Shown: piece by piece, positions 8,624 through 52,040 of the stretch | Layout of the letters: each line of letters begins with the position of its first letter | Numbering within the stretch: the stretch's first letter is position 1 | From: a virus | Strand: one strand, 5' to 3' | IMG/VR virus record: IMGVR_UViG_3300020048_000003 | DNA length: 59,049 nucleotides | Notes under the pieces: generated by a model | Seen by the model: only the letters and a program-made list of their open reading frames with translations | What the model was told of the DNA's origin: nothing | The model's database searches: none | Made by a program: the position numbers and the translations under genes

Positions 8624-9243
8624 ATATTATAATTTATTGCTACTTCTAAGTAATCATATTTTTTCTTCAAATCATCTGGTAAAAATTTTTTACATAATTT
8701 ATAATTTTCAGGATGATTTTCTAATAACCAATCTATAAAGGGTTCAACACCAGGTATTAATATTTTTTTAGGATTATGATCAGGATTTGGATATATAGTT
8801 TCAGTTAAATATAACTCAATTAAGTTATAGTTTGAATCAAAATTATATCCATATTTTACCATATTCTTTAGCATTTCTACCATCTTAGGTGTTATTACAC
8901 GTTTACTACCATCATATTTTTTTTCACCTATTATATCAGGTAAACTAATACTATTAATTGAACTATCATCTCCCCAACCATTTGCGTAATCTGATTGTAA
9001 TAAATATTCAATCATTTTAAATTGATCATTTTCCAATGCAGTGGCAAAGAGATTAGAAATTATATCTCCTGCGTTTGCTATATCGTATCCATTATCCAAT
9101 AAATAATTTAAGCCATCAAAATCTCCTTCTCTTACAATATCAACAATAAACTTATTACCAAGTTTTTGAATTAATCTTTTCTCTTTCTTTTTCTTGGCTT
9201 TTAAGTAGTCTGCTTCAGTAAATTTTTCAAATACTTTTATCAT
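8620..9243 (-). CDS. array cassette protein (207 aa, MIKVFEKF N-variant)
   Basis: N MIKVFEKFTEAD / C AINYNI. Confidence 0.8.
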   Translation of the reverse strand: MIKVFEKFTEADYLKAKKKKEKRLIQKLGNKFIVDIVREGDFDGLNYLLDNGYDIANAGDIISNLFATALENDQFKMIEYLLQSDYANGWGDDSSINSISLPDIIGEKKYDGSKRVITPKMVEMLKNMVKYGYNFDSNYNLIELYLTETIYPNPDHNPKKILIPGVEPFIDWLLENHPENYKLCKKFLPDDLKKKYDYLEVAINYNI

Positions 9244-10481
9244 AAATTATATTTTTTTACTAATAACTCCATAATTTCGGGAATATGATCATATTCATTT
9301 ATAATTTTTGGATGTAATTTATGTACTATATATTTTGCATTATTTTCATCTATATCCAATATCATTTTTTGAAATTCATATGATTTTGTTATTTTATCAT
9401 CCATTCCAATTAATTTACCAATTATACTTGGATTTTGTTTCATTTTATTAATCCAATATTTTTCATTGTTATGTGTTATTCGTCTTGTTATATATGGATT
9501 TTCTTTACCATTATAATTTGATATTATATCATATGCTAAATCTAACTCTGGTTGTGCTAAATATTTATCAAATCTTTCATCTTTTGGATGGTCAAATCCC
9601 AAAAAATCCGATTTTCTTTTTAACGCGTCTAATGCGTTATATTGATCTTGATGACTCTGTGCATCTAATATCATTTTCAAATATTTCATATCAACTCCTC
9701 TATCACTTAATAAATCTATCAATTTAAAAAAGTTTATTTCATATTTATCAATATCATGTGTTGCATAACCTGAATATGAATAATCTCTTGCTTTAATTTT
9801 TGAATTTAATAAAATTGGTAATGCCTCATAATTATCTTTACATACAACATTATAAATGTGTCTGCAGGTGACTGGTATATTTAATTCTTCTACAAGATAT
9901 TTTATTAAATCTGGTGTTGTATTATATTTAGTTGCTTCATCTAAACAATTTTCTTCTGCGTGAGTCCAAGTTGCTTGTATTTTTTTTGTAGGGTCTAAGC
10001 CTTTATTTTTTACAAAGTATTTAACTAAATCTACTTGACCATGAAAAGCAGCAATTCTTAATAACTTTGAATCTAACTTAAATCCTAATTTTTCTAAAAA
10101 ATCAAAAGTTTTATTTCTATCATCAGTTTTAGCGTGATGTATTACATATTCTAAAAAATTATTACGATTTGTTAAAAATTCTTTATATAAATCATTTTTT
10201 AACATTACGGTTTTGAATGTTTCAAAATCAAGAAATGTTATACTTCTTTCTAATCTTATCAATTCTCTTAAAGGAAGTATATCAAGTAAAGCAATTACCA
10301 TTTCTGGAAATTGTTTAGTACAACTCCAGTGAAACAAATCACTTACACTTCCTTCTATTGTATGGTTTTTTATTTTATCTAAATAATAATCAACGTCACG
10401 AATTTTATCATTAAAAAACTCGTCATATAAGGATTTTTTAGGCATCTTTTTTTTAGCCTCAAATAATTTTATATATTTCAT
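9240..10481 (-). CDS. array cassette protein, large (413 aa) with ankyrin-like repeats
   Basis: N MKYIKLFEAKKK / C VKKYNL; LLRIAAFHGQVDLVKYFVKNKGLDP ankyrin-like segments. Confidence 0.8.
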   Translation of the reverse strand: MKYIKLFEAKKKMPKKSLYDEFFNDKIRDVDYYLDKIKNHTIEGSVSDLFHWSCTKQFPEMVIALLDILPLRELIRLERSITFLDFETFKTVMLKNDLYKEFLTNRNNFLEYVIHHAKTDDRNKTFDFLEKLGFKLDSKLLRIAAFHGQVDLVKYFVKNKGLDPTKKIQATWTHAEENCLDEATKYNTTPDLIKYLVEELNIPVTCRHIYNVVCKDNYEALPILLNSKIKARDYSYSGYATHDIDKYEINFFKLIDLLSDRGVDMKYLKMILDAQSHQDQYNALDALKRKSDFLGFDHPKDERFDKYLAQPELDLAYDIISNYNGKENPYITRRITHNNEKYWINKMKQNPSIIGKLIGMDDKITKSYEFQKMILDIDENNAKYIVHKLHPKIINEYDHIPEIMELLVKKYNL

Positions 10482-10768
10482 AAGTTATATTTTTGTGCTG
10501 ATTTTTCTAATTCAAATTTTTCAATTTCTTCTGGTGTCATTTTTCTTTCTATATCATCATCACAAATTATAACTTTTCCTATTCCAGAATCTTCATCTAA
10601 AATAGCTTCTGCTTCGTAATCATCCATATTTGCCTCATCATTCCACCAATGATCTAATATTTTTACAAACGGCTTTACCATCCAATCACTTTCGGATAAG
10701 ATAACATAATCTCCAATTTTATATTTTACCTCAGATTGAGAATCTTCAAATGTTTTTATATATTTCAT
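10478..10768 (-). CDS. array cassette protein, G-D-Y-V mini-domain type
   Basis: N MKYIKTFEDSQ...KIGDYVIL / C TPEEIEKFELEKSAQKYNL. Confidence 0.8.
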   Translation of the reverse strand: MKYIKTFEDSQSEVKYKIGDYVILSESDWMVKPFVKILDHWWNDEANMDDYEAEAILDEDSGIGKVIICDDDIERKMTPEEIEKFELEKSAQKYNL

Positions 10769-11067
10769 AGATTATATTTTTTTGCATCATGCTCTAATTC
10801 AAGTTGTTCAGATTCTTCTTTTGTTAGTTTTCTATCAACTTCATATCCATAAAATTGAGCACCAAGTCCTTCATCTTCACCTGTTAAAAATACACCTTGA
10901 TAAAAAATATATCTTGGATCATTCTTATTAAAATCGGTATCTTTGGTGATTCCAATTATTTTCATGTATTCTGCTACAATATCTGCCATTCTTGAAGTCA
11001 CGATAACAATATCATTGATTTTATAAACTGGATAAAAACTTTCCTCAAACAATTTTAAATGTTTCAT
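10765..11067 (-). CDS. array cassette protein, mini-domain type
   Basis: N MKHLKLFEESF / C ELEHDAKKYNL. Confidence 0.8.
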   Translation of the reverse strand: MKHLKLFEESFYPVYKINDIVIVTSRMADIVAEYMKIIGITKDTDFNKNDPRYIFYQGVFLTGEDEGLGAQFYGYEVDRKLTKEESEQLELEHDAKKYNL

Positions 11068-11591
11068 TTTTCTCCTTTGAATCCTATTTTTGTATCTTTA
11101 TATGCGTTTGTATTTTTATACATATTTGAACCATACATTTGTTTTTCTATTTCTTTTCTTTTTACATAAGAAGTTATATCTTTTAAATTAGCAAATAATT
11201 CTTCTGGTTTTGTTTCAGATGTTATTCCAGTTCTCATTGATACTCTATTAATTATAATTTCATGAGTATCAAAATAATTTTTAAATTCACTAATAATAGA
11301 CATTGCTTCATATTGATTAATAGCAGTAAAGAGTAAAAATATATTACAATATTTTTGTTTATCTTTAAATGGATTAAATGAAGATGGTGCTTTTTCTATA
11401 ATAACTTGAAATTGAGAAAATCCCAATCCAGCAATATATTGTATAAAATCTTCTTTTATATTTTTGAATTTTTTTATACCTGATTCGGTGGTATTAATAA
11501 CAAATCCAAAACCTTCTTCTTGAAAATGTTTATATCCTGCGGCTTTATACGGTCCTGTATAAAACTCAAATAAGTTGTAATTTGTTATCAT
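11064..11591 (-). CDS. array-embedded protein (175 aa) lacking the KYNL C-terminus
   Basis: N MITNYNLFEF (degenerate tag); ends KIGFKGEK; downstream junction absent. Confidence 0.65.
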   Translation of the reverse strand: MITNYNLFEFYTGPYKAAGYKHFQEEGFGFVINTTESGIKKFKNIKEDFIQYIAGLGFSQFQVIIEKAPSSFNPFKDKQKYCNIFLLFTAINQYEAMSIISEFKNYFDTHEIIINRVSMRTGITSETKPEELFANLKDITSYVKRKEIEKQMYGSNMYKNTNAYKDTKIGFKGEK

Positions 11592-11594
11592 ATC

Positions 11595-11978
11595 TTATAG
11601 ATTATATTTTTTTGCCATTATTTTTAATTCTAATTCTTCTTTATTCTTTGAGAAATATTTAATTTGGTCTGTGTAAGTTTTATCATTATAAACCAATAAA
11701 TATTTTTTCTTTTTATCATTACTTTTATAATCATCTTCAAAACAGCTTCTAAATCCGTATGGTATATCATCTTCAAAATAAACTTTATAACCTAAGAAAT
11801 TTTCTCCACTATGTTTTTGCATTTTTTCTATTCTAACTATTTGACATATTGTTGTTGCTATAAATTTTTTAAATCCTTGAAACCTATCATTCCAAGGAAA
11901 TTTGGTTGGATTTAATAATACATAATCACCAACTTCAGGTAATTGTTTTTGTGCTTCAAACAATTTCAAATATTTCAT
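11595..11978 (-). CDS. array cassette protein
   Basis: N MKYLKLFEAQ / C LKIMAKKYNL. Confidence 0.8.
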   Translation of the reverse strand: MKYLKLFEAQKQLPEVGDYVLLNPTKFPWNDRFQGFKKFIATTICQIVRIEKMQKHSGENFLGYKVYFEDDIPYGFRSCFEDDYKSNDKKKKYLLVYNDKTYTDQIKYFSKNKEELELKIMAKKYNL

Positions 11979-12484
11979 AAATTATATTTTTCTATATTTT
12001 TATAGAATTCAATTGGTTCTAATTGTTCTTCAATTTCTTTACATATAACTTCAAATTCTTTTATTATATCATCAAATATATTATTCTTTTTAAGAACGTC
12101 TTGTATTTTTGGGTAATATTCTTTTGTAAAATTCATGTATAAATCAATTGGTAAAAATTCATTATACTCAGTACCCCAGAAATGTGATAGATTACTAGTT
12201 CTATAGTGAGATATATTATTTAATGTTGTTGTAAAATAATATAAATCAAATGTGTTCAATCCTTCTTGTATATCACGAGTTCTCAATTTTATTTCTCTTA
12301 ATTTCGGATCATTTAATTTATTTGATTTCTTACGAATTAAATCTAATATTCCAACAATTCCATTAAATTGGCTTTGTCCTATGGACATACAAAAATAATC
12401 ATTTGTATTGTATTCAAGTACAAATTCATCACAAGAATATACTATTTTTTGGTATCTATTTTCAAATAATTTTAAATATTTCAT
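11975..12484 (-). CDS. array cassette protein (169 aa)
   Basis: N MKYLKLFENRY / C KNIEKYNL. Confidence 0.8.
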   Translation of the reverse strand: MKYLKLFENRYQKIVYSCDEFVLEYNTNDYFCMSIGQSQFNGIVGILDLIRKKSNKLNDPKLREIKLRTRDIQEGLNTFDLYYFTTTLNNISHYRTSNLSHFWGTEYNEFLPIDLYMNFTKEYYPKIQDVLKKNNIFDDIIKEFEVICKEIEEQLEPIEFYKNIEKYNL

Positions 12485-12876
12485 AAGTTATATTTTTCTG
12501 CGTCTTCAAATCTATCAATAATATCTTTGTATTTTGGATCATATTTTAATCTACTATCAAATCCTACGGTATCATATATAATTTGTTCTTTACCTAAATT
12601 TATTATTGATTTTTGTAAATCTAAATCATTTTGTAATCTTCTTTTAAAATCCCAACTATCTTCAAATTCTTCTAAATTTATACCTTTTTCAACTAAATGT
12701 GCAAACATTACAAAAGGATCATAACATGCTTGAACTAAAGCTTCTTCATTATTTATATCATAACCTTTATTAAGAAAGAAATCAACTATCTTAATTTCTC
12801 CAGTTTGAACAGATTTTTTAAATAGCAAATCTTTCATTTCCTTAATATTATTATATTTTTCAAATAATTTAATCAT
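12481..12876 (-). CDS. array cassette protein
   Basis: N MIKLFEKYNN / C EDAEKYNL; preceded by divergent intergenic region. Confidence 0.8.
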   Translation of the reverse strand: MIKLFEKYNNIKEMKDLLFKKSVQTGEIKIVDFFLNKGYDINNEEALVQACYDPFVMFAHLVEKGINLEEFEDSWDFKRRLQNDLDLQKSIINLGKEQIIYDTVGFDSRLKYDPKYKDIIDRFEDAEKYNL

Positions 12877-12916
12877 AATATTTTATATATATAAAAAAAT
12901 AAATATTTATTTTTAG
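12877..12916. promoter_or_regulatory. 40-nt AT-rich divergent intergenic region (candidate promoters for 12876<- and ->12917)
   Basis: Only non-coding spacer between divergently oriented genes; TATATATAAAAAAATAAATATTTATTTTTAG. Confidence 0.3.
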
Positions 12917-13819
12917 ATGATAGATTTAGTATTAACAATGATAGCCGCGTATGATGATTATGAAACCGAACTTGGTTTTACAAAAGATGATATAAATAAT
13001 ATCATCAAAAAATATAAAGCACTTGATGATTTAAAAGAAAGTAATGAAATAGGATGGATCATTTTGTGGAAAAACAAGTATATTTCAAATGAAATATTTG
13101 CAAAATTAATGGATGTTGAATACGAAGATAAGGATTTTTGGATTGTGTGTGATAATTTTGATGATGTTTTATCTAAGGAATATGAAACAGAAATTGAAAT
13201 TTTAGATGGTAATTTAGATTGGGAACCAGGTGAAACTTATGATGTTGAATTATATTATCATTGGAACTCATTTACAGAAGAAACATTAAAAGACATAGTA
13301 AAATTTTGTATTGATAAAGGATTTGAAATTGATGATGAATTAATGACAGAAGAAAATACAATCTTTAAAGATGGTGATATATATTTTATTGGTTCTGATG
13401 ATGAAAAAAGAATCTATGATCTATTAAATGATGATGAATTGGAAGATTTAAAAAGTTCATTAAATATCGCAATATGTGAAGCACAAGAAAGTGCTGATCA
13501 GAGTGAAATGTATAGAGCTGTAAAAAAGGCTTTTATAAATTCAGTTGGCGAATATAAATATAAAACTATCAATGTAGATGGAAAAGACGAAGAGAAATTA
13601 TATATTAGAATGGATATAGATTGGGTTGATATTGAATCTAGATTAAAAGATGAATATGGTGATTTTGACTTTGATACAGAAAATTATGGAAGTCTTCTTT
13701 ATATATTAAAAGAATATGAATATTTTGATTTTAGAGTACCCGATTATGATCGTTTATCTGGTAGTATTGATGATGATATAATGAATGAATATATTCAAAA
13801 TCGTTTAGAGTGGGATTAA
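12917..13819 (+). CDS. acidic hypothetical protein (300 aa) on opposite strand, interrupting the array
   Basis: ORF track; D/E-rich; convergent 4-nt overlap with 13816..14685. Confidence 0.7.
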   Translation: MIDLVLTMIAAYDDYETELGFTKDDINNIIKKYKALDDLKESNEIGWIILWKNKYISNEIFAKLMDVEYEDKDFWIVCDNFDDVLSKEYETEIEILDGNLDWEPGETYDVELYYHWNSFTEETLKDIVKFCIDKGFEIDDELMTEENTIFKDGDIYFIGSDDEKRIYDLLNDDELEDLKSSLNIAICEAQESADQSEMYRAVKKAFINSVGEYKYKTINVDGKDEEKLYIRMDIDWVDIESRLKDEYGDFDFDTENYGSLLYILKEYEYFDFRVPDYDRLSGSIDDDIMNEYIQNRLEWD

Positions 13820-14685
13820 AGATTATATTTTCCAGCGTCTCTTTTCATTATTTTATTTTTAATAAATTTCATTGCTTTCTTTTCATCTCCCACATTTTGT
13901 AAAATTTCATATTTATCACCAACTAAAAAATCTTTTGTTTTACCAAAAATTAATATCATATTTTCTGTAGGTTCAAGATATTCAATATCAAAACTATTTA
14001 TGTCTTTTTCAAATGCTTTTTTTACATCTAATATTGTTTTATTATCATCAATAAAAAACTCTATCATTTTATAAAAAAAGTTTGTATTTAAAAAAACAAC
14101 AGAATATGTATCATACTTTTTAGTTTCTGAGCATATAGATTGAATTTTTTTTGCTTCTTTTGGTGGTATAGTTGTAATACTTCTGAAACTTGAACGAATA
14201 CTATCACCAGTGCTCAAATCGTAAATGAAATTTTTAGCAACATCATAATAGAAATCTTCCATATCTGGATAACTTTGTAATATAAATTTTTCACCTAAGT
14301 CGTATTTATAATAGCCATAATAATATTTTATAAGTTTTTCATCTGGTTCACCATCATCTAAAGTATTACCACCTAATGGATAATCTTTATCAAAATGATA
14401 TAAAACATAATCCATAAAGAAACCGTGCATTGTAAAATTAAAATCTTTAAGAATTTTTTCTCTATATTCTCTATAGAAATTTTCAAAATTAAAACCTTCT
14501 TCTAAAAGTTCATCTAATAATTTATTCAAATATTGATCAAGTTCATTTGTATCAGTTTTAAAATGACGTGTAAAATTTCCAGTTAAATCAGTATAGTCTT
14601 CATTTACTTCAATAAAATTAATAATAAATTGATAGATTTGTTTGGATAATTCCGCATATGCATATTCTTTATAATTTGTTTCCAT
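13816..14685 (-). CDS. array cassette protein (289 aa), atypical N-terminus
   Basis: N METNYKEYAY / C RDAGKYNL. Confidence 0.75.
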   Translation of the reverse strand: METNYKEYAYAELSKQIYQFIINFIEVNEDYTDLTGNFTRHFKTDTNELDQYLNKLLDELLEEGFNFENFYREYREKILKDFNFTMHGFFMDYVLYHFDKDYPLGGNTLDDGEPDEKLIKYYYGYYKYDLGEKFILQSYPDMEDFYYDVAKNFIYDLSTGDSIRSSFRSITTIPPKEAKKIQSICSETKKYDTYSVVFLNTNFFYKMIEFFIDDNKTILDVKKAFEKDINSFDIEYLEPTENMILIFGKTKDFLVGDKYEILQNVGDEKKAMKFIKNKIMKRDAGKYNL

Positions 14686-14690
14686 AATGT

Positions 14691-14918
14691 TTATATATTA
14701 TATTTTTCAGCATCAATTTCATATTCAGGCACGTGTTCTATATGATTTTCATCTATCCAACCACATTTATTTCCCCAAGCATCTAATAGATAAACCCTAT
14801 TATAATTAACATTTTCAACTTTAAATTTAGTTCTCTTATGTGGTTCATCAAGTATGAAAACTATATCACCAGTTTTAAATTTTGGCTTTTGTTCTTCAAA
14901 TATTTTAATATGTTTCAT
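14691..14918 (-). CDS. array cassette protein, 75-aa G-D-I-V mini-domain
   Basis: N MKHIKIFEEQ...KTGDIVFIL / C VPEYEIDAEKYNI. Confidence 0.8.
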   Translation of the reverse strand: MKHIKIFEEQKPKFKTGDIVFILDEPHKRTKFKVENVNYNRVYLLDAWGNKCGWIDENHIEHVPEYEIDAEKYNI

Positions 14919-15355
14919 AAATTATATTTATTTGCATTTTTTCTCATCTCTCTTTCTTCAAAGAAGTCAGGATGATATTTTAAAAATACTTGTTTAATTT
15001 TTGGTCTATCTCTAAGTTGTGTTGTTTTATTTGCCCAATCAAAAACATCAAAATCATCATCTACTTGATGATATACATCAGCACCATTTTCTATTAATTC
15101 ATCTACCATCTTCCAATTTGACCAATTTATAGCAGTCATTAAAAGAGTATATATAGTATGGTATGGTGATTGACTTATTTCTTCTTCCGAATAATTGTCT
15201 TGATTAGGATTTCCACCTTTTTTAATAGCATCTAAAAACTTCCAATAATCTTGATCCTTAACACTATCATATAAATTTTTATCAATTTCTTTTTGTGTTT
15301 CAGTTAATTCTGGCTCAGGTGATTTCTTAAAATAATCTTTGAATTTTGTAAACAT
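14915..15355 (-). CDS. array cassette protein with ankyrin-like repeat
   Basis: N MFTKFKDYFKK / C NANKYNL; LLMTAINWSNWKMVDELIENGADV. Confidence 0.75.
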   Translation of the reverse strand: MFTKFKDYFKKSPEPELTETQKEIDKNLYDSVKDQDYWKFLDAIKKGGNPNQDNYSEEEISQSPYHTIYTLLMTAINWSNWKMVDELIENGADVYHQVDDDFDVFDWANKTTQLRDRPKIKQVFLKYHPDFFEEREMRKNANKYNL

Positions 15356-15861
15356 TATAAATTATATTTTTTTGTAGCACCAAATAATGGATATTTTTCA
15401 TCAATATATTTTTTTACTTTTATTGTTGCAACATCATAAAAATCTTTACCTTCATTATTTCTAATTGTCATATCAGGATCAAATTCTAAAATCAATTTTA
15501 CATTTTTAATATCATCTTTTGAATTTTTAGTAATAGTAATTAATGGTGTATTACCTTCTTCATCTTTACTATCAACATCAGCACCACTCTCTAAAAAATC
15601 AACAACAGCAATCATATCTAAGTTTTCTGCTGCTAATCCAAGACATACATCAGGATCCGTAGGAACACCAAAATGATTTTCAATTCTTTCTTTTGCCTCT
15701 TTTTCTGATATGTGAAATTTTGAGGTGACTTGATTTATTATTCCCCATAAATCATCACTTGTAAAATAATCCGAACTATCATAATCTCTAAAATCCGATT
15801 TGAACCAATCTTCAAGATTCCATGGATCTCTTTTTTTTTCAAATGTTTTAATATATTTCAT
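15355..15861 (-). CDS. array cassette protein, ankyrin-repeat
   Basis: N MKYIKTFEKK / C ATKKYNL; DFLESGADVDSKDEEGNTPLITITKNS. Confidence 0.8.
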   Translation of the reverse strand: MKYIKTFEKKRDPWNLEDWFKSDFRDYDSSDYFTSDDLWGIINQVTSKFHISEKEAKERIENHFGVPTDPDVCLGLAAENLDMIAVVDFLESGADVDSKDEEGNTPLITITKNSKDDIKNVKLILEFDPDMTIRNNEGKDFYDVATIKVKKYIDEKYPLFGATKKYNL

Positions 15862-15863
15862 TT

Positions 15864-44803: not shown

Positions 44804-45192
44804 AAATTATATTTATTTGCATTTATATACATATCAGGGTCTTTTAGAAATTCTAAAAAATCTTGATATTGAGTATGATTCATATTTCCGTAAAATTCAT
44901 CTATATCATCTTCTTCTGCGTAATATGAAAAATTTAATTTATAATACTTATTATCATTTACTAAACTATAACCTAATATTTGTGTTTCTTCGGGAATTAA
45001 TTTAATACCAGGATCATCTTGTAATTCTGGATGTAATAAAAAATATTTAGTTAGAATAGGATATAAACTTCTTTCAGCTTCTTTTATTTGCTTTTTTGTA
45101 GTATGAATTTTTTCCAATTTTTCATTAGTCCAAGGTTCATTAAGAAAAGGATTTTTACTCTCATTTATATTTTCAAATCTTTGTATTTTCAT
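44800..45192 (-). CDS. array cassette protein
   Basis: N MKIQRFENIN / C INANKYNL. Confidence 0.8.
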   Translation of the reverse strand: MKIQRFENINESKNPFLNEPWTNEKLEKIHTTKKQIKEAERSLYPILTKYFLLHPELQDDPGIKLIPEETQILGYSLVNDNKYYKLNFSYYAEEDDIDEFYGNMNHTQYQDFLEFLKDPDMYINANKYNL

Positions 45193-45193
45193 T

Positions 45194-45550
45194 CTATAAA
45201 TTGTATTTGTTTGCTGTTAATTCTAATAGTGCTTTTTCTATTTTCTTTTTTGATAAATAGACATAAAATTCTTCTGTGCTATGTTCTCCTCGCCATGTTA
45301 AAATTACCATGATTTTTTGACTCAGATATTGATCTCCTTCTAATACTAACTCACTTATATATAAATCATGATCACTAATATTTTTATCAGGTGTATCACC
45401 ATAATCAGGATGATAGTTTTTCTTATTTGCTAATTTATAATATTCTTTTAAAGCTATTGGTTTTAAAATAATCAGCATTTCGTTATACTCTGTGATAGAT
45501 TTAAAAATCTGATCAACTGATAATGTTTCGTATAATTTTTTAATTTTCAT
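45194..45550 (-). CDS. array cassette protein
   Basis: N MKIKKLYETL / C LTANKYNL. Confidence 0.8.
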   Translation of the reverse strand: MKIKKLYETLSVDQIFKSITEYNEMLIILKPIALKEYYKLANKKNYHPDYGDTPDKNISDHDLYISELVLEGDQYLSQKIMVILTWRGEHSTEEFYVYLSKKKIEKALLELTANKYNL

Positions 45551-45552
45551 AA

Positions 45553-45855
45553 TTATAAATTGTATTTATTTGCTTGTATTATATATTCTAATTTTTCTTT
45601 GTCTTTTGAGATATATAAAATTTCTTCTCTACCGAACCACATAGGTTGATCATAGGCATCTTCTATATGTTTTGGTACGTTTTCAAATTCAACAACATAT
45701 CTTCTCATAAGAGGTGTGTGTTGAAGTTCAATAACTTTTCCTATTGCACTTGCAAAATAAATATCTAAATCTTTATCAGGATCCTCTAAATTTTGACAAA
45801 TAACATAGTCACCTACTTTTGGATCTTTCTTTTCAAATAATTTTATATATTTCAC
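45553..45855 (-). CDS. array cassette protein, EILYISKDKE subfamily
   Basis: N MKYIKLFEKKDPKVGDYVIC / C YIIQANKYNL. Confidence 0.8.
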   Translation of the reverse strand: MKYIKLFEKKDPKVGDYVICQNLEDPDKDLDIYFASAIGKVIELQHTPLMRRYVVEFENVPKHIEDAYDQPMWFGREEILYISKDKEKLEYIIQANKYNL

Positions 45856-45857
45856 TT

Positions 45858-46217
45858 TTATAAATTGTATTTTTCTGCATCTGCTTCTGTTGGATCAATA
45901 ATTATCTTATCATCAACTATTTTTATTTCACCTTGAAATTCAAATCCATAACCTTTATAAGTTTCTTTTGCTGCAATATAATCTTCATCATCATCAAAAG
46001 GATAGTAATCAAAAGAATTTAGAGCATCAGCAGTTGGATCATAACCTAAACAAATTCCAATTACATCTTTTTCATCACGATACATTTTTCTAAATCCAGT
46101 AAATGATATATTCATTTTATTTAAAACAACATGAATCTCATCTATATTACCATAAATAACCCAGAATACACAAGTGCCAACTTTATATCTTCTTTCAAAT
46201 AATTTTATATATTTCAT
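45858..46217 (-). CDS. array cassette protein
   Basis: N MKYIKLFERRY / C EADAEKYNL. Confidence 0.8.
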   Translation of the reverse strand: MKYIKLFERRYKVGTCVFWVIYGNIDEIHVVLNKMNISFTGFRKMYRDEKDVIGICLGYDPTADALNSFDYYPFDDDEDYIAAKETYKGYGFEFQGEIKIVDDKIIIDPTEADAEKYNL

Positions 46218-46654
46218 AAATTATATTTATTCACATTTTTTAAAAATTCAATTTCTTTAACTTCTTTATCATATTCATCTTTTGAATCAAATTGAACTAT
46301 ATAATCATCACTATACCAACAACAAGGTCTTTTATTAGTCCATCCTGATAATTTAACACCATGTACATTAAAATCTTTAATTTCATCATATGTTGATTTT
46401 ATAGTATTTGATATATTTTTATATTTTATTTCTAATCTAAATAATTCTTCTTCACTTAATTTGTTTTTTAATTCAACCAAAACAACACTATTTTTTGAAC
46501 TATAATTTGATGTTCCAATGTCAATTATTTTACCATAAAAATTATTACAATTTAATTCTCCTGGTCTATCATAATCTATGCCCCGTATAACTACATAATC
46601 ACCAAACTTTATATCTTTTTTATGAGAAAATAATTCATTAAATTTAGTTATCAT
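46214..46654 (-). CDS. array cassette protein
   Basis: N MITKFNELFS...KFGDYVVI / C KNVNKYNL. Confidence 0.8.
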   Translation of the reverse strand: MITKFNELFSHKKDIKFGDYVVIRGIDYDRPGELNCNNFYGKIIDIGTSNYSSKNSVVLVELKNKLSEEELFRLEIKYKNISNTIKSTYDEIKDFNVHGVKLSGWTNKRPCCWYSDDYIVQFDSKDEYDKEVKEIEFLKNVNKYNL

Positions 46655-46908
46655 AAATTATATTTATTTGCTATTTTTTTTAAATACTCTTCTTCTGTTA
46701 TAAATAAAGTTTCTCTAAAAAGACCTGGAAAAACATAATTGCTATCTGTATATCCTATTTTATAATAAGTAGAATATGGAAAGTCCAAATCATATCCTTT
46801 AATTACATAAGGTTTACCATACTCTAAAGAATGACAAATTTCGGGATCATATAAATAAACAATATCACCCTTTTCAAAGATATTTTCGTATGTTTTTATA
46901 TATTTCAT
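46651..46908 (-). CDS. array cassette protein, mini-domain type
   Basis: N MKYIKTYENIFEKGDIVYL / C KIANKYNL. Confidence 0.8.
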   Translation of the reverse strand: MKYIKTYENIFEKGDIVYLYDPEICHSLEYGKPYVIKGYDLDFPYSTYYKIGYTDSNYVFPGLFRETLFITEEEYLKKIANKYNL

Positions 46909-47276
46909 AAATTGTATTTATTTACATTTATCACCATTTCCAATTCTTCACCTTCAATCATTTTAAAATAATTAAAGAAAATTGGAACTCTCTCACTATT
47001 AAATTGGTTATTATATCCTTTAACGGTTCTGTTATTTTTAAAAATTTCTTTTTCTTTTTTGTCATTTACTATAACCATACCAGAAATACAATCTAATGGT
47101 AAATAATCATTTATACCAAATTCTTCCATTGCTCTTTGTGGATCACCATAATATCCATCAATCTTATAATAAGAATCTTTTGTGATACTTTTACTTTTTA
47201 GACTTTTTATACACTTAACAAATGGACTAACTCGCTGCATATAATATTCTTCAAATTTTTCAAATGTTTTTATCAT
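46905..47276 (-). CDS. array cassette protein
   Basis: N MIKTFEKFEEY / C INVNKYNL. Confidence 0.8.
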   Translation of the reverse strand: MIKTFEKFEEYYMQRVSPFVKCIKSLKSKSITKDSYYKIDGYYGDPQRAMEEFGINDYLPLDCISGMVIVNDKKEKEIFKNNRTVKGYNNQFNSERVPIFFNYFKMIEGEELEMVINVNKYNL

Positions 47277-47653
47277 AAATTATATTTTGTTATTTCTTCA
47301 TAATCTTTTCCAATTTTAACTGCTTCAGCAGCAGGTATATCCACAATAAATCTTAACATATCTTCTTTACTTTTAAAATGCGTTCCTATTTCAGTATCAA
47401 GACATTCTAATTTTAATTTTTCAAATGTGTCAAACACATTTTGTGTTTGTTCATCATCAATATCTAAATCATAATAAAATTCATATCTGATAATTGGTGT
47501 ATCTTCATTTGTAAATTCCCAATCAAAATAGTCTTTTTGTGGTAATTGTGATTCAATATAATATCCACAATTCTCAATTATTTTTTCATAATATTCCCAC
47601 TTAGATTGGAATTTATCTAAATCTTGATTATAATCTTCAAATGTTTTTATCAT
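47273..47653 (-). CDS. array cassette protein
   Basis: N MIKTFEDYNQ / C EITKYNL. Confidence 0.8.
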   Translation of the reverse strand: MIKTFEDYNQDLDKFQSKWEYYEKIIENCGYYIESQLPQKDYFDWEFTNEDTPIIRYEFYYDLDIDDEQTQNVFDTFEKLKLECLDTEIGTHFKSKEDMLRFIVDIPAAEAVKIGKDYEEITKYNL

Positions 47654-47997
47654 ATATTATATTTATTTGCAATTTTATGTAATTCCCTTTTTTCATGAAA
47701 ATCTGGAAACAATTTTGTGAATAATTTCTTACCTTTTTTATCCGCATAATAGTACGCATCATGCCCATATTTATTTATTAGATATGGATCTGCACCATTT
47801 GTTAGTAAAAATTTTATCCCTGTATATCTACATTCTAAGCAAGCAGTTATCAATAATGTATAATCCGCATCAAAAAAAGAATTTATATTAATTTTATCAA
47901 GTTGCTGTATCATACGTTGAATATCATCATGTCGCATGTGATAAAGAAAAGTTTCTTCTTCACTCCAATTATTTTCGTATAATTTGATATATTTCAT
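47650..47997 (-). CDS. array cassette protein, ankyrin-like
   Basis: N MKYIKLYENNW / C IANKYNI; TLLITACLECRYTGIKFLLTNGADPYLINKYGHDAYYYA. Confidence 0.8.
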   Translation of the reverse strand: MKYIKLYENNWSEEETFLYHMRHDDIQRMIQQLDKININSFFDADYTLLITACLECRYTGIKFLLTNGADPYLINKYGHDAYYYADKKGKKLFTKLFPDFHEKRELHKIANKYNI

Positions 47998-48007
47998 CTA
48001 TCTATAT

Positions 48008-48040
48008 ATAAAAAAACCTTTGAATTTTTTTCAAAGGTTA
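48008..48040 (-). terminator. intrinsic terminator inside array (CCTTTGAATTTTTTTCAAAGG hairpin + T7); near-identical twin of 30766-30785
   Basis: 8-bp stem 48017-48037 overlapping stop of 48031..48387; T-run on minus strand. Confidence 0.6.
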
Positions 48041-48387
48041 TATTTATTTGCAGTTAATTCATACTCTTCTATATTCACCATCCCGGCAAATTTATATCCT
48101 TCTTCTTCATAATAAGAATCATATAATTTTCCATAATATGGATTCCACCCCCATTTACTTGAAGAATGTTTTACCCTAGATTTTCCATTATATCCGATAA
48201 ACATATATTTATTATCAAAATTTGGATCATCACTTTTTCTAGTATATTGGTGCACACTTTTTAATAGACCTTCACTATAACTTTTTGCACATTTTATCTT
48301 CTTTAAAGAATCCTCAAATCTATCATCAGTTGGTATTAGCCAATAAAGTTTTTCATTTCTATTTTCGTATAATTTAATATATTTCAT
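48031..48387 (-). CDS. array cassette protein
   Basis: N MKYIKLYENRN / C LTANKYNL (stop embedded in terminator stem). Confidence 0.8.
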   Translation of the reverse strand: MKYIKLYENRNEKLYWLIPTDDRFEDSLKKIKCAKSYSEGLLKSVHQYTRKSDDPNFDNKYMFIGYNGKSRVKHSSSKWGWNPYYGKLYDSYYEEEGYKFAGMVNIEEYELTANKYNL

Positions 48388-49097
48388 AAGTTGTATTTAT
48401 TACTAGAGAATAAATATCCATATTCTTCTCTTATTTTTTTGTGTATTTTATTATCATCAAATTTTGAAATTTCATCTGGATACATCTCACATAATAGTTT
48501 TTGAAAAGGATAATTTTTTCCCTTTGTCCATCCATTTAAATCATTTTTTCTATTCATATGTGGATTAAATGTAGTTTCTATAAAACAACCAGCTTTTAAA
48601 AGTATAATTGCATTTTCATACGCTTTATTAAAAGTAGCATGAAATATTGGTAAAACACCTGAATTATTTGGTGTATTAATATCTGCACCTTGTTCTATTA
48701 AATATTTTAATATCTTGCCAGATATAGAAGATTTTATACCTGCTGCAGAATATATTGCAGTTGAATTACAACTATTATGAGCCTCTAAATCAGCACCATT
48801 TTCTACTAAACATTTTATCAGATTGAAATCTTGTAAATCAACAGACATCATTAATAAAGACCCCCAATTATTTGCAGGATCATGAACATTTATATCAGCA
48901 CCTTTATCAATAAGTTTTTGAACTTTAGAAATTGATACTTTTTTGAAATTCTTAATATCAAAACTAAGATCTTTTCTGGTTCTATCTGTTCGTATTTTTT
49001 CCCATTCTGTGATTATTTGATCGTAAATCAGATGAAGAAGTTCATCTGTTGGAGATATTTTTATTTTTTTGGTATATGCCTCAAATAGTGTTATCAT
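48384..49097 (-). CDS. array cassette protein, ankyrin-repeat (237 aa, at least 4 repeats)
   Basis: N MITLFEAYTK / C SSNKYNL; NNWGSLLMMSVDLQDFNLIKCLVENGADLEAHNSCNSTAIYSAAG... Confidence 0.85.
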   Translation of the reverse strand: MITLFEAYTKKIKISPTDELLHLIYDQIITEWEKIRTDRTRKDLSFDIKNFKKVSISKVQKLIDKGADINVHDPANNWGSLLMMSVDLQDFNLIKCLVENGADLEAHNSCNSTAIYSAAGIKSSISGKILKYLIEQGADINTPNNSGVLPIFHATFNKAYENAIILLKAGCFIETTFNPHMNRKNDLNGWTKGKNYPFQKLLCEMYPDEISKFDDNKIHKKIREEYGYLFSSNKYNL

Positions 49098-49501
49098 AGA
49101 TTATATTTTTTTGTTGTTGGGTGATCATAATAACCTACAAGTTTTATTAATTCTTCTTCTAATTTTTTCATATTTTTAAACATAAAAATTGTTTCTAAAA
49201 ATAAAAGTTCTGGATTATTACCACCATCATCATCAAGTACAGAAAATTTATATTTACCATAAAAAGTCAACCAACTTAAATATTCATATATTTTCAAAAA
49301 AACTTCAGCGTTTAAATCCTTCACTAAAAATTCTATTGTTAAGGCTATACTATTTTCATCATTATCTAATATTTCAGTATTACCGTAATCAATTCCCTTA
49401 AAAAAATGTTTTAGTATAGATTCACCATACCATTCATATTCTTCAAAACCTTCTTCAACATTGCTTAATGTTGAATTCTCATATATTTTTTTAATTTTCA
49501 T
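49094..49501 (-). CDS. array cassette protein
   Basis: N MKIKKIYENS / C TTKKYNL. Confidence 0.8.
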   Translation of the reverse strand: MKIKKIYENSTLSNVEEGFEEYEWYGESILKHFFKGIDYGNTEILDNDENSIALTIEFLVKDLNAEVFLKIYEYLSWLTFYGKYKFSVLDDDGGNNPELLFLETIFMFKNMKKLEEELIKLVGYYDHPTTKKYNL

Positions 49502-49578
49502 AAGTTATATTTTTTTACATCAAAAAATAAATCCAAATCAATAGTTATTTTACTTTCAAACCGTTTTAAATATTTCAT
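49498..49578 (-). CDS. empty cassette: 26-aa mini-ORF MKYLKRFESKITIDLDLFFDVKKYNL made only of the N-tag and C-tag
   Basis: Manual translation; ATGA overlaps on both sides keep the translational-coupling chain intact; below ORF-track cut-off. Confidence 0.6.
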   Translation of the reverse strand: MKYLKRFESKITIDLDLFFDVKKYNL

Positions 49579-50102
49579 AAATTATATTTTCTCATATTTT
49601 GATACAATTCCAATTTATTATTATCAATTTTGCACTCTAAATCATTTCCATATGAAATCATTTCCATTCCACATTCTTCACATATACCTTTTTTTCCATG
49701 TTTTATATCATTTCTTATTGTATTACATAAAGGACAACGTATTTTATCTCCTTTACGATAATCACTATGGATTAAATGTTCTTTTGTATAAGTTTTTGTG
49801 TATTCAACCTCAGGATCTCTATGATATCCTCTAAAATCATTTTTATATAAATTAACATTAACCTGGTTTATTGTTAATCCATTTCCATATGTTTGCATTT
49901 CTGTTTTACAATTTTTACATCTTCTTATTTCTCCTGTACTCATATCATCCATCTCTGTTTTACAAACAGGACATTTCATATAAACTTTCGTGACAACTTT
50001 TCTTGTTGGATCAATTCTAGACATAGCAGTTTCTCTAAAAGTATAATCACTTTTAGAAAATTTATTTGGCATCTTTCCTTCAAATAATTTCAAATATTTC
50101 AT
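49575..50102 (-). CDS. array cassette protein with two zinc-ribbon modules (internal duplication)
   Basis: N MKYLKLFEGKM / C NMRKYNL; KCPVCKTEM...RRCKNCKTEM and RCPLCNTIR...GICEECGMEM. Confidence 0.8.
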   Translation of the reverse strand: MKYLKLFEGKMPNKFSKSDYTFRETAMSRIDPTRKVVTKVYMKCPVCKTEMDDMSTGEIRRCKNCKTEMQTYGNGLTINQVNVNLYKNDFRGYHRDPEVEYTKTYTKEHLIHSDYRKGDKIRCPLCNTIRNDIKHGKKGICEECGMEMISYGNDLECKIDNNKLELYQNMRKYNL

Positions 50103-50593
50103 AAATTATACTTTTTTGCCATTCTTCGCATTTCTGCATCTTTTCTATATTGATATACTTTTTCAAGTCTTTCCATTATATTATTTATAAATATATCTAT
50201 CGTTATACCACCACCAGAATATTCCCACATGAAATTTTTATCTGATGTTTTTCCAAATAACACACCTTTTAATTTTTTAACATAAATAATATCAACGACT
50301 ATATTTGTTGAATATTCAAATATAGGGTTAACGCGAATTCCAATTTCATCATTAAGTAAAAAACATCTATTATCTATATTAAATTTATTATAACGATCAA
50401 AATTATTTGAAGAAGTACCTCGTTTTAGTTTTTGTGAAAATTGTTCAATTAAATAATTATAAGCTTCAGTATTTAACTTTTTTTTAATTTCTTCTTGCTG
50501 AACATTCAATTCTCTTAATCTCTGACTATGAATTTTTTTCTCCGCATAAATTTTCTTTAACTCACTTGTATATTCTTTGTAATTCTGTATCAT
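50099..50593 (-). CDS. array cassette protein
   Basis: N MIQNYKEYTS / C RMAKKYNL. Confidence 0.8.
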   Translation of the reverse strand: MIQNYKEYTSELKKIYAEKKIHSQRLRELNVQQEEIKKKLNTEAYNYLIEQFSQKLKRGTSSNNFDRYNKFNIDNRCFLLNDEIGIRVNPIFEYSTNIVVDIIYVKKLKGVLFGKTSDKNFMWEYSGGGITIDIFINNIMERLEKVYQYRKDAEMRRMAKKYNL

Positions 50594-50913
50594 TATAAAT
50601 TATAATTTTTTGCGTTTTTATATAATTCTGGATCTTCCATAAATTTTAATAAATTATTATATTCTCTAAATGTAAAATGTACTTCTTGCTGGTATCCACT
50701 ATATTCACTTTTTTTGTAATATTGTACAACAAAAGTTTTATCATGTCTACTATCAAAATAAAATTCAAATGAATATTTATATCCTTTCAAATCATGATTC
50801 TTTTGAAAATCAGTATCATAATTTATAAAATCATCTATGGTTTTACAAATTGATTTTTTAAAATCTGATAATTTTTTTTCTTCTTGTTTATACTCTTCAA
50901 ATTTAGTTAACAT
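50593..50913 (-). CDS. array cassette protein
   Basis: N MLTKFEEYKQ / C KNAKNYNL. Confidence 0.8.
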   Translation of the reverse strand: MLTKFEEYKQEEKKLSDFKKSICKTIDDFINYDTDFQKNHDLKGYKYSFEFYFDSRHDKTFVVQYYKKSEYSGYQQEVHFTFREYNNLLKFMEDPELYKNAKNYNL

Positions 50914-50914
50914 T

Positions 50915-51271
50915 TTATAAATTATATTTTTCTGCTTCTATTTCGTGATCTCCAACTTCAACTTTACCCATAAAAACTGATGGTTTACGGTAACTAGGTT
51001 CTTTATAATTTAAATCTGCCCAAACCCAATCATATGATTCATCTTCATCACTCCATGTTTTAAAAACGAATACTTCATAATCTGGATTATCCTCATCCTC
51101 AAACATACCTATAAAATACTCGATCTCATCTTCAGGCATGTCAATTTTTTTCAAAGCAACACTAAAATATGGTTGTTTTGTATTTACTTGCCAATGAAAA
51201 GAATTACGAACATCATCATATTTTAACCTGTCTTCTAAAGTTGAAGTTTCATATGTTCTTATATATTTCAT
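50915..51271 (-). CDS. array cassette protein
   Basis: N MKYIRTYETS / C HEIEAEKYNL. Confidence 0.8.
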   Translation of the reverse strand: MKYIRTYETSTLEDRLKYDDVRNSFHWQVNTKQPYFSVALKKIDMPEDEIEYFIGMFEDEDNPDYEVFVFKTWSDEDESYDWVWADLNYKEPSYRKPSVFMGKVEVGDHEIEAEKYNL

Positions 51272-51627
51272 AAATTATATTTATTTGCGTCTTTTTCTAA
51301 TTGAAATTTTTCCATATACATATTTATAGTATAATCGTCTAAATGAAAAAGATAGTATATCCTTGAATAAGAAGAATCATCAACTATTTCAGTTTCAAAC
51401 ATCCATCCTGAATATCCCATAAAAATTTCAAATTTTTCTATACTTTCAACCGTTTCTTTAAATATAGAACTAAAACAAATTTTAAATTTAAATACATCAA
51501 CACTAACATCGTATTTTATGACAATATCATCAAATTCATCTAATCCAATAAAAAACTTTTGAATAACTAATTTTTTAAATTCTTTTGCTAAATCTTTATT
51601 GTTTTCGTATAATTTCTTTATCTTCAT
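51268..51627 (-). CDS. array cassette protein
   Basis: N MKIKKLYENNK / C KDANKYNL. Confidence 0.8.
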   Translation of the reverse strand: MKIKKLYENNKDLAKEFKKLVIQKFFIGLDEFDDIVIKYDVSVDVFKFKICFSSIFKETVESIEKFEIFMGYSGWMFETEIVDDSSYSRIYYLFHLDDYTINMYMEKFQLEKDANKYNL

Positions 51628-51629
51628 AA

Positions 51630-52040
51630 TTATAAATTATATTTATTTACTGCGTTTTGTAAATCATATTCTTTTAGATATTCTTTACATATTTTTGGAA
51701 CTCTTTCTCTTAAATATTCAATAATTTCTTTCTGATATTTATGTGCAAACAAGTGAACAAAATCTCTATTAAAGTTATCCCTTACATTTAAATCTGCGCC
51801 TTCTTTTATTAAAATTATCATCATTTCTTTTAAAACTAATTTTTTAATACTTTTAGTTAAATTAGGTAAACTGGATTCCCAAATATTTGCGATTGTCATT
51901 AATGGTGTTAACTCATATTCGTCTCTGATATTTACATCAATACCAGAGTTTATTTTTGATATAAAATAATCATAATCACATTTTTCTATTGCTTCAAATA
52001 TATCTAAACTTTTTGCTTCGTATAATTTCTTTATCTTCAT
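51630..52040 (-). CDS. array cassette protein, ankyrin-like
   Basis: N MKIKKLYEAKS / C AVNKYNL; ELTPLMTIANIW...LIKEGADLNVRDNFNRDFVHLFA. Confidence 0.75.
   Translation of the reverse strand: MKIKKLYEAKSLDIFEAIEKCDYDYFISKINSGIDVNIRDEYELTPLMTIANIWESSLPNLTKSIKKLVLKEMMIILIKEGADLNVRDNFNRDFVHLFAHKYQKEIIEYLRERVPKICKEYLKEYDLQNAVNKYNL

Follow-up and report, generated by a model that had tools for sequence, protein, structure and literature searches.

The internal proteins of bacteriophage T4 are diverse and otherwise unrelated small proteins that have only a capsid targeting sequence (CTS) in common (PMC3012670). Through this N-terminal sequence of 10 residues the proteins are loaded onto the scaffolding core; the prohead protease then cuts it off, the proteins are injected together with the DNA, and a restriction enzyme of the host is blocked by at least one of them; as a group they are fast-evolving and directed against host defence (PMC3012670, PMC9026906, PMC4122927). 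Within the CTS, residues 4 and 7 (Tyr4 and Phe7) matter for targeting (PMC9026906). Here we describe an array of small viral genes that resembles this system, found in a DNA stretch of 59,049 nucleotides (IMG/VR record IMGVR_UViG_3300020048_000003; "the window" below means this whole stretch). As in T4 IPI, IPII and IPIII and in the internal-protein loci of the T-even phages, small unrelated proteins have a common short N-terminal peptide, and the lineage of the window possesses T4-type portal, prohead protease and Gp23 genes. The scale is different: T4 has three internal proteins (IPI, IPII and IPIII), whereas the array has at least 122 genes.

Two other described systems are similar in part. 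In the hyperplastic regions of T4-like phages, as in the window, short conserved sequences flank small variable open reading frames (ORFs); these are the promoter early stem-loop (PeSL) cassettes, whose flanks have been proposed as drivers of modular shuffling (PMC4122927, PMC2839356). Phage-encoded ankyrin repeats, which the window also possesses, are found in phage WO of Wolbachia and in Megaira and Leptospira phages. The best overall explanation that we can propose for the array, with a probability of roughly 0.4, is a library of binding proteins routed by address peptides, most likely into the prohead. Compared with known targeting-peptide families, this one is new in its scale, in its second tag and in its recognisable binding-domain cargo; the literature that we searched contained no description of a two-tag family and no relevant report on KYNL or on ankyrin proteins in jumbo phages.

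The tagged-gene array and its terminal peptides

From about 6.1 to 58.1 kb the minus strand of the window, whose G+C content is 24%, is a nearly gap-free series of small ORFs. The array itself (6083..58143, minus strand) consists of 122 back-to-back genes with a median length of 118 residues, and a (K/N)YN(L/I/M) C-terminus is found on 122 of the approximately 128 minus-strand ORFs within this span. The consensus of the N-terminal tag (N-tag) is MK(Y/H)(I/L)K.(F/Y)E, with the variants MKTYE.FI, MIK.FE.F, MIT.F.(I/L)FE and MKIKK.YE, and that of the C-terminal tag (C-tag) is (D/N)A.KYNL. Three apparent exceptions to the N-tag (16776, 17086 and 54722) are mis-called starts in which the tag begins at an internal Met, and in a fourth (45553) the real start is GTG. 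At 75 junctions consecutive genes overlap by ATGA and are not separated by intergenic DNA. No Shine-Dalgarno sequence was found ahead of the array gene starts, sigma-70-like promoters are not enriched in the window (155 found, 179.5 expected), and tRNA and Rfam scans gave no match.

A contig that overlaps the right end of the window carries at least 14 further tagged genes in the 8.5 kb past that end, and the array therefore comprises at least 136 genes over about 60 kb. A protein identical to one of the window proteins sits on a 286,618-bp contig, which is the contig of the window, so that the 122 tagged genes take up about 52 kb of 287 kb. The coordinates by which an initial annotation had named individual cassettes are the low ends of real minus-strand ORFs. 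We hold this descriptive account of the tagged array to be very probably correct.

The codons of the C-tag indicate at which level it is conserved. The Tyr of KYNL is written TAC in 11% of cases (8% in the background), its Asn is written AAC in 30% (8% elsewhere in the same genes), and its terminal Leu is written by TTA, CTA, CTC, CTT and CTG. Since synonymous codons at Tyr and Asn vary at or above background, the tags are constrained as peptides and not as DNA. The C-tag also keeps the frame of its own ORF though the spacing from stop to ATG varies, and it is retained by genes that have no downstream partner (20903, 33209, 41929 and 57715), as well as by genes ahead of a gap or a terminator; likewise, genes that open a new series after a gap still have the N-tag. 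As a separate observation, the excess of AAC for the KYNL Asn across the 122 C-tags is a local codon bias that is unexplained.

Structurally, the C-tag is part of a terminal amphipathic helix ending in ...E.E...A.KYNL. Two cassettes were modelled (10478 and 20903), and in both models the tags are the lowest-confidence parts and make no contact with each other; the predicted local distance difference test (pLDDT) score is low at residues 1-20 of 10478 and 1-14 of 20903. The same tags are found on an SH3-like barrel, an ankyrin solenoid, a Rossmann-like von Willebrand factor A (vWA) fold and a zinc ribbon. What is conserved in the termini is thus the peptide, and they accompany, from outside the folded domain, folds that are unrelated to each other. 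The initial annotation had suggested that the cargo was fitted with common termini, and this suggestion is borne out not only by their low-confidence, peripheral position in both models but also by untagged versions of the cargo (the GDxV repeats of the database protein P0139 and a canonical PF00092 VWA protein in a relative) and by a 26-codon ORF that contains little else than the two tags.

Cargo modules between the tags

After strict trimming (10 N-terminal and 14 C-terminal residues), jackhmmer clustering of the array proteins gave two SH3-like subfamilies of 11 and 10 genes, an ankyrin group of 12, a six-gene family, an acidic trio, three pairs and 74 singletons. Because the SH3-like, ankyrin, six-gene and acidic groups and the singletons separate in this way, the cargo consists of several unrelated folds and not of one, which agrees with the initial annotation, for which a single divergent fold would have been a refutation. 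SH3-like proteins account for about 30% of the array and ankyrin proteins for about 10%, together about 40%, while about 60% of the cassettes have no detectable relatives within the array, in Pfam or in PHROGs. In a Pfam scan of the 122 proteins, besides ankyrin, four families matched one protein each at E<=1e-3; the PHROG search matched ankyrin families alone. A Pfam search of ten large orphan cassettes returned nothing but a sub-threshold match:

34628..35128 (-): DUF4240-like, below threshold (PF14024, E 2.2e-5, 25.1 vs 27 bits)

The largest group is the GDYV family. About a third of the cassettes had been described initially as mini-domains with a (K/R)(V/I)GD(Y/I)V motif, likely small and beta-rich, and both statements hold: an iterated hidden Markov model (HMM) built on tag-trimmed sequences converges on 36 of the 122 genes (30%), and the predicted fold is an SH3-like barrel of five strands. 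In a leave-one-out test 31 of the 36 were recovered at E<=0.01, and shuffled versions scored 0-7 bits, with one exception. The model of 10478, with its 36 paralogues as alignment, has a pLDDT of 83; its first 20 residues are unstructured and of low pLDDT, and five strands, as in the small barrels of the SH3-like superfold, are followed by a C-terminal helix that contains the tag. No match at E<=1e-3 was found between the 122 array proteins and the KOW, Tudor and SH3 models of Pfam, and a BFVD fold search with the SH3-like model returned only uncharacterised phage proteins. The family differs from known SH3-like small barrels (KOW/NusG-Spt5, Tudor, PsaE, BAH, HspQ) in having no sequence-level Pfam or PHROG match, and also in its additional C-terminal helix and its two tags. 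A metagenome search with the profile of the tagged SH3-like proteins recovered 3,420 representatives of 50% clusters (E<=1e-3), almost all of them full-length; among its matches in the annotated database none is named and none has a Pfam domain. P0139 is an untagged protein of 737 residues with six tandem GDxV SH3-like repeats. The members in the window are listed here, assigned by the family HMM with the leave-one-out test and to subfamilies A and B by the strict jackhmmer clustering.

7893..8225 (-): SH3-like, subfamily B, tail ...SKNRE.LE..L.A.KYNL
10478..10768 (-): GDYV/SH3-like barrel, the modelled one (structure model)
10765..11067 (-): SH3-like (also BLAST)
11595..11978 (-): SH3-like, subfamily B
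14691..14918 (-): SH3-like
16211..16516 (-): SH3-like, subfamily A
16519..16779 (-): SH3-like, subfamily A
17929..18198 (-): SH3-like
18198..18512 (-): SH3-like, subfamily A
18509..18805 (-): SH3-like, subfamily A
21786..22064 (-): SH3-like, subfamily A
22061..22309 (-): SH3-like, subfamily A
22312..22713 (-): SH3-like, subfamily A, N-tag MKTYEAFI
23488..23799 (-): SH3-like
23806..24150 (-): SH3-like, N-tag MKTYEGFF
25553..25813 (-): SH3-like
25813..26205 (-): SH3-like, subfamily B
26518..26811 (-): SH3-like
27526..27783 (-): SH3-like, subfamily A (weak left-out score, E 0.011)
27786..28064 (-): SH3-like, subfamily A
28984..29355 (-): SH3-like, subfamily B (also BLAST)
29352..29684 (-): SH3-like, subfamily B, adjoining its close paralogue 28984 (also BLAST)
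30115..30450 (-): SH3-like (also BLAST)
31865..32221 (-): SH3-like, subfamily B (left-out score not above shuffled controls)
33898..34227 (-): SH3-like, subfamily A
34224..34628 (-): possibly a GDFV protein with two copies (not recovered when left out, E 1.7)
36389..36682 (-): SH3-like, weak (left-out E 0.13)
36679..36963 (-): SH3-like, subfamily A
38341..38637 (-): SH3-like
41244..41531 (-): SH3-like
42324..42680 (-): SH3-like, subfamily B
42677..42988 (-): SH3-like, subfamily B (also BLAST)
45553..45855 (-): SH3-like, subfamily B, GTG start (jackhmmer)
46214..46654 (-): SH3-like, placed in subfamily B by jackhmmer (weak family-HMM score)
46651..46908 (-): SH3-like, weak (left-out E 0.019)
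55463..55765 (-): SH3-like
55762..56037 (-): SH3-like
56818..57114 (-): SH3-like (also BLAST)

Ankyrin repeats had been reported initially in eleven cassettes and as possible in a twelfth. Pfam Ank-clan matches at E<0.01 were found for 11 of these 12, six of them over the cut-off: 21415, 22710, 24934, 31482 and 48384 are clearly above the gathering score, and 9240 passes the curated cut-off via Ank_3 only. The other five (14915, 15355, 36960, 47650 and 51630) are under the cut-off, yet all their matches are to ankyrin models. The twelfth, 12481, has no Pfam match, and its tentative assignment is supported by homology that does not depend on the tags: with 10 and 14 residues trimmed (jackhmmer, E<1e-4), 8620, 12481, 14915, 15355, 36960, 47650 and 51630 join the firm members. 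Cassette 9240 is not linked to this cluster. With 8620 the candidates are 13 in total, six of them firm, and the Pfam scan of the 122 proteins revealed no ankyrin proteins beyond these.

8620..9243 (-): ankyrin-like, weak (jackhmmer ankyrin cluster; Pfam Ank_3 E 1.3e-3, under cut-off)
9240..10481 (-): 413-residue protein, ankyrin repeats at about residues 140-225 (Ank_3 24.3 vs 22.3 bits; Ank_2 E 6.6e-4)
12481..12876 (-): ankyrin-like, weak (no Pfam match; jackhmmer ankyrin cluster)
14915..15355 (-): ankyrin-repeat, below threshold (Ank_3 E 2.2e-4, 21.8 vs 22.3 bits; BLAST ankyrin cluster)
15355..15861 (-): ankyrin-repeat, below threshold (Ank_2 E 2.2e-5, 25.4 vs 27.3 bits; BLAST cluster)
21415..21789 (-): ankyrin-repeat (Ank_2 E 3e-10)
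22710..23102 (-): ankyrin-repeat (Ank_2 E 2.5e-9)
24934..25551 (-): ankyrin-repeat, strongest of the set (Ank_2 E 5.1e-15; phrog_9262 E 6e-17)
31482..31868 (-): ankyrin-repeat (Ank_4 E 6.5e-14)
36960..37388 (-): ankyrin-repeat, below threshold (Ank_2 E 3.6e-5; BLAST cluster)
47650..47997 (-): ankyrin-repeat, below threshold (Ank_3 E 1.2e-3; BLAST cluster)
48384..49097 (-): ankyrin-repeat (Ank_2 E 8.6e-13)
51630..52040 (-): ankyrin-repeat, below threshold (Ank_2 E 1.9e-4; BLAST cluster)

Such modules had been considered rare in phages at this density. Consistently, a tblastn search with the best ankyrin protein matched 13 of 50,697 GenBank phage records, mostly Wolbachia WO, and the phages of Wolbachia, Megaira and Leptospira were its sole matches there, at 27-37% identity over about half of the query. 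The ankyrin proteins of these phages differ from those of the array in being few per genome and untagged, and the phages are temperate and infect intracellular bacteria.

The remaining cargo is diverse. For cassette 20903 the motif had been correctly noticed (DTSGS, followed by LIFTDG), and its model, with four tagged orthologues as alignment, shows a Rossmann-like alpha/beta vWA fold with a pLDDT of 70. The vWA assignment is thus supported by fold search alone: no Pfam family matched at E<0.01, and a PDB profile search found only glutaredoxin (E 0.09). Residues D22 and S24 are invariant in five orthologues, as is the Asp of (T/S)DG, the third DxSxS position is Pro in one of them (P0002) and no conserved Thr was identified, so that a complete metal ion-dependent adhesion site, whose motif the initial annotation had named, is not established. 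In addition, a 97-residue tagged protein (52043-52336, minus strand) has a second DxSGS-like motif, LLDASGSMNSG, and is too short for a vWA domain. The duplicated zinc ribbons of cassette 49575 were recognised again as two homologous units with two CxxC knuckles each (CPVC-x13-CKNC and CPLC-x14-CEEC), both followed by EM.(T/S)YGN.L; its Pfam zinc-ribbon matches are all under the cut-off (E 1e-3 to 1e-2). Three acidic paralogues of about 300 residues cluster by BLAST, as anticipated, and are described as helical, with isoelectric points (pI) of 4.2-4.75 and net charges of -15 to -45. The six-gene family is defined by the motif YW.V...(L/I)KK.G.PE.

20903..21418 (-): minimal vWA-fold protein, DTSGS and TDG motifs, tags at both ends
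49575..50102 (-): two homologous CxxC...CxxC zinc ribbons (sequence; sub-threshold Pfam zinc-ribbon matches)
35505..36392 (-): acidic paralogue, 295 residues, pI 4.5 (BLAST and jackhmmer clustering)
37385..38323 (-): acidic paralogue, 312 residues, pI 4.2, net charge -45 (BLAST and jackhmmer clustering)
40387..41247 (-): acidic paralogue, 286 residues, pI 4.75 (BLAST and jackhmmer clustering)
26808..27092 (-): six-gene family (jackhmmer clustering)
33209..33601 (-): six-gene family (BLAST and jackhmmer clustering)
41528..41869 (-): six-gene family (jackhmmer clustering)
48031..48387 (-): six-gene family (BLAST and jackhmmer clustering)
50915..51271 (-): six-gene family (jackhmmer clustering)
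53581..54012 (-): six-gene family (jackhmmer clustering)

Taken as a whole, the SH3-like, ankyrin, vWA and zinc-ribbon assignments agree with the earlier view that the interiors are mostly small protein-binding modules. From these domain types it is a reasonable inference that the products may be host-manipulating effectors.

Possible destinations of the tagged proteins

Each gene encodes a flexible N-terminal peptide, one small folded module and a C-terminal amphipathic helix. In the mechanism that we propose, the termini would serve as address labels, so that binders of many kinds share a single fate, and we consider such an address-tagged library of binders probable. Most likely they would be taken up by the prohead and later injected together with the DNA; the C-terminal helix could act as a second docking peptide, for which the coat-binding C-terminal helices of scaffolding proteins and the cargo peptides of encapsulins are analogues. 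Inside the cell, the targets of the modules would be host proteins such as those of defence, and new cargo would enter the array through recombination within the conserved DNA that encodes the tags. Capsid loading is taken as the most likely destination because the N-tag has CTS-like features and because T4-type head genes are present in the lineage; taken by itself, the capsid as destination is possible but rather doubtful. The complete scenario, in which more than 130 two-tagged binders are loaded and injected as an anti-defence arsenal while the tag DNA doubles as a recombination handle, appears unlikely.

The CTS-like features are as follows. The sequences of T4 IPII and IPIII both begin with MKTYQEFIAE, and an N-tag of the form MKTYE.F(I/F) is found in four window genes. 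Of the 122 array proteins, 86 have an aromatic residue (F or Y) at position 7 and 82 have Glu at position 8.

Concerning the lineage, the DNA pattern of the junctions was found in 22 IMG/VR stretches, on contigs of up to 330 kb, most of which carry genes with the same tags. It has no match in 185,579 species-representative bacterial and archaeal genomes and consequently gives no clue to a host or a prophage. GenBank phages gave no match either to 12 kb of the window (megablast) or to an SH3-like protein and an acidic paralogue (tblastn). T4-type head genes (portal, protease and Gp23) were seen on the related tagged contigs L005 and L068/L019: on a short related contig tagged genes lie beside a T4-type portal gene (Portal_T4, E 3.7e-63), one 155-kb contig carries both the portal and further tagged genes (L019, L068), and in L068 it is followed by a 790-residue protein with an N-terminal prohead-protease domain (S80 over the cut-off at E 1.5e-6, S77 under it) and then by the Gp23 major capsid protein. 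The portal of the tagged-gene contig is 62% identical to that of the 735-kb genome LR756501, 47-49% identical to those of 634-642-kb genomes and 32% identical to those of the Prevotella Lak phages. The lineage is therefore nearest to the 'Mahaphage' huge phages, a clade described by Al-Shayeb et al. (2020) and predicted to infect Bacteroidetes (PMC7162821), and we assign the array to a huge tailed phage whose head genes are of the T4 type. The lineage differs from these phages in G+C content (24% in the window vs 32%), and ankyrin is not mentioned in the text of that study (PMC7162821).

Several points weigh against a prohead destination. The C-tag of the window is as conserved as its N-tag, whereas T4 internal proteins have no KYNL-like C-terminus, and when MKYIKLFE is compared with the T4 CTS only M1, K2 and F7 match. 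A cleavage site of the T4 type, L/I-x-E, is not general in the array because P3, counted from Glu8, is L or I in only 46 of the 122 proteins (the protease specificity of this clade may differ). Packaging of more than 130 different proteins would be without precedent. The contigs on which head genes were observed are relatives of the window's own; a tagged gene adjoins the portal at 1 of 45 portal loci, for which reason synteny between the two was rejected, and the 41 kb around the LR756501 portal contain no tagged genes, a further difference from 'Mahaphage'. Finally, early host-takeover regions of T4-like phages are long same-strand series of small overlapping genes, and since the architecture of the array resembles them a late, packaged role is disfavoured.

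Under the strongest alternative the proteins would remain unpackaged and act in the cytoplasm, in host takeover or against defence, and their termini would dock them to a single cellular or phage partner, for instance a chaperone, an AAA+ protease or adaptor (with the tag as a degron or timer), a hub protein or a compartment made by the phage. The same-strand, ATGA-overlapping small genes match T4-like early regions, the tags are flexible peptides at the periphery, no synteny links tagged genes to head genes, and a related contig encodes ClpB-like AAA+ proteins; moreover, Y-x-L-COOH can be likened to hydrophobic C-terminal recognition motifs. However, a cytoplasmic role leaves the resemblance of MKTYE.FI to the T4 CTS unexplained and gives no reason for having both an N-tag and a C-tag, and we regard it as conceivable but not likely.

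It could also be argued that the peptides have no role and are by-products of an A/T-rich junction of about 45 nt that serves translational coupling or initiation in a host lacking Shine-Dalgarno sequences, or recombination of cassettes. The 75 ATGA overlaps, starts without a Shine-Dalgarno sequence, the high identity of the junctions (67% compared with 34% for interiors, with runs of at least 20 nt shared by 8.5% of the pairs), the empty and fused cassettes described below, which fit recombination at the tags, and the shuffling mediated by PeSLs in T4-like phages (PMC4122927, PMC2839356) are all in keeping with this. A purely nucleic-acid explanation is contradicted by the codon evidence, that is, by synonymous tag sites that vary at or above background, and is improbable on other grounds as well: genes without a successor still have the C-tag, genes that come after long gaps and have an upstream motif of their own still have the N-tag, and the motif tracks its own reading frame and not a fixed distance to the next ATG. 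Furthermore, the relatives alter a residue and preserve the character of the motif, since related contigs use KFNL or KFNI as C-tag, two ankyrin proteins included. Recombination at the junctions may nevertheless take place alongside a peptide function, though it does not account for constraint at the level of the peptide.

Two further explanations have very little probability. That the DNA comes from a eukaryotic virus or host genome, with ankyrin, vWA and leucine-rich repeat (LRR) proteins as effectors directed at eukaryotes, might be proposed as eukaryotes, giant viruses and intracellular bacteria are the groups in which ankyrin and LRR proteins are most frequent and the GenBank phage matches to ankyrin are mainly from Wolbachia and Megaira phages, but the organisation is prokaryotic (ATGA-coupled operons with intrinsic terminators), portal, protease and capsid genes of the T4 type are present on related tagged contigs, none of the 185,579 species-representative genomes contains the junction pattern, and the nearest portals are those of huge phages predicted to infect Bacteroidetes (PMC7162821). 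That all cassettes are one divergent fold with the termini as core strands would agree with the merging of 52 genes by single-linkage jackhmmer when only 9 and 8 residues are trimmed, but this component splits under stricter trimming and is an artefact of residual tag-proximal sequence, Pfam and the fold assignments show ankyrin solenoids among other folds, and the termini are of lowest confidence and not packed together in both models, so that the hypothesis was rejected.

If the tags are address labels, the array is a natural system that sends arbitrary small domains to one destination, and if that destination is the capsid the system could be put straight to use in protein delivery, for which the T4 CTS already serves. 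Prohead loading would then be a case of two-tag cargo loading of a tailed-phage capsid, far beyond the three internal proteins of T4. As a set of binders, the array would rank among the largest known to be encoded by a phage, and each binder would probe some target in the host, perhaps one of its defence systems. Mechanism aside, we are dealing with a very large protein family that has no Pfam, PHROG or literature annotation and that accounts for a sizeable share of the 'dark' genes in some huge phages.

Array growth and neighbouring sequences

The cargo had been thought to be recruited from many sources. This is overstated, since the bulk of it is explained by duplication inside the array: genes of the same family are nearer to each other than expected by chance (mean rank distance 4.7 vs 8.5, p=0.0006), SH3-like and ankyrin genes make up about 40% of the cassettes, and growth largely by local duplication is shown. 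As for homologues in host lineages, to which the initial annotation had pointed, none that is host-derived was identified, and the non-ankyrin homologues are unnamed metagenomic proteins. Pairwise identity is 67% for the 48-nt junctions and 34% for the interiors, and 8.5% of the junction pairs contain an identical run of at least 20 nt. Two database proteins (P0126 and P0173) consist of two tagged cassettes fused head-to-tail through a lost stop, and one ORF of the array is reduced to an N-tag, 10 residues and a C-tag, with ATGA overlaps on both sides, and is interpreted as an 'empty cassette' or else as the remnant of a deletion.

49498..49578 (-): 'empty cassette' of 26 codons, MKYLKRFESKITIDLDLFFDVKKYNL (ATGA phase on either side)

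The array may plausibly have grown both by duplication and by exchange within the DNA that encodes the tags, and it offers a concrete test of the building of new phage genes by domain exchange between fixed terminal peptides.

The array was also compared with PeSL cassettes. A few of its gaps contain a hairpin followed by a promoter-like TATATA(A/G)(A/T), which is a further likeness. The repeat of the window differs, however, in being coding and constrained as a peptide, most junctions have no intergenic DNA and sigma-70-like promoters are not enriched. An assignment to PeSL cassettes, which have a stem-loop and a sigma-70 promoter between ORFs, was rejected, as 75 junctions are devoid of intergenic DNA.

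After most gaps TATATA(A/G)(A/T) ends 3-7 nt (once 20 nt) before the ATG of the first gene, often with a hairpin ahead of it. On the minus strand the sites are at about 12882-12893, 20863-20872, 30749-30756, 32930-32939, 38327-38334, 41874-41881, 48001-48010 and 57134-57141, and the motif may be a phage promoter giving near-leaderless transcripts. In contig L068 a similar motif, AATATATA(A/G), is located 14-55 nt upstream of the portal, protease-scaffold and capsid genes. Late timing was considered on the basis of this motif and rejected: it also precedes other genes, and expression timing therefore cannot be deduced from it.

The only long gap of the array (281 nt) contains three tandem 30-nt repeats at 33009-33098, each a small hairpin of the TTGTTA/CC..TAACAA type with no Rfam or tRNA match, situated just downstream of a strong terminator-like hairpin (33164-33191). 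The array is interrupted by an untagged, very acidic ORF of 300 residues on the plus strand (12917-13819), for which only a weak Phage_XkdX match was obtained.

Some related contigs have features of their own. In a Pfam search of ten large tag-bearing proteins of relatives, one LRR protein was found and nothing else. Contig L003 (163 kb) encodes a 10-repeat LRR protein (12288-13376) with the N-tag-like start MIKKFRIFE and without C-tag, as well as ClpB-like AAA+ proteins (3625-6084 and 7269-9749, minus strand) interrupted by inteins or LAGLIDADG domains. In contig L079 (326 kb, JGI; regions 3386-3994, 7595-8610 and 15673-16476) the C-tag is KFNL/KFNI and two ankyrin genes are tagged; it also has an untagged canonical PF00092 VWA gene and genes for PARG-like, cold-shock domain and GIY-YIG homing endonuclease proteins.

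Outside the array, the minus strand of the window encodes two neighbouring untagged proteins. The first (3803-4135, 110 residues) matches cREC_REC, a cyclic-phosphate processing receiver domain, at E 3e-16; the second (4137-4676, 179 residues) has hydrophobic segments at its N-terminus, and an acidic, heptad-like unit (EEIQENV / EDIQEDM) is repeated in it in tandem.

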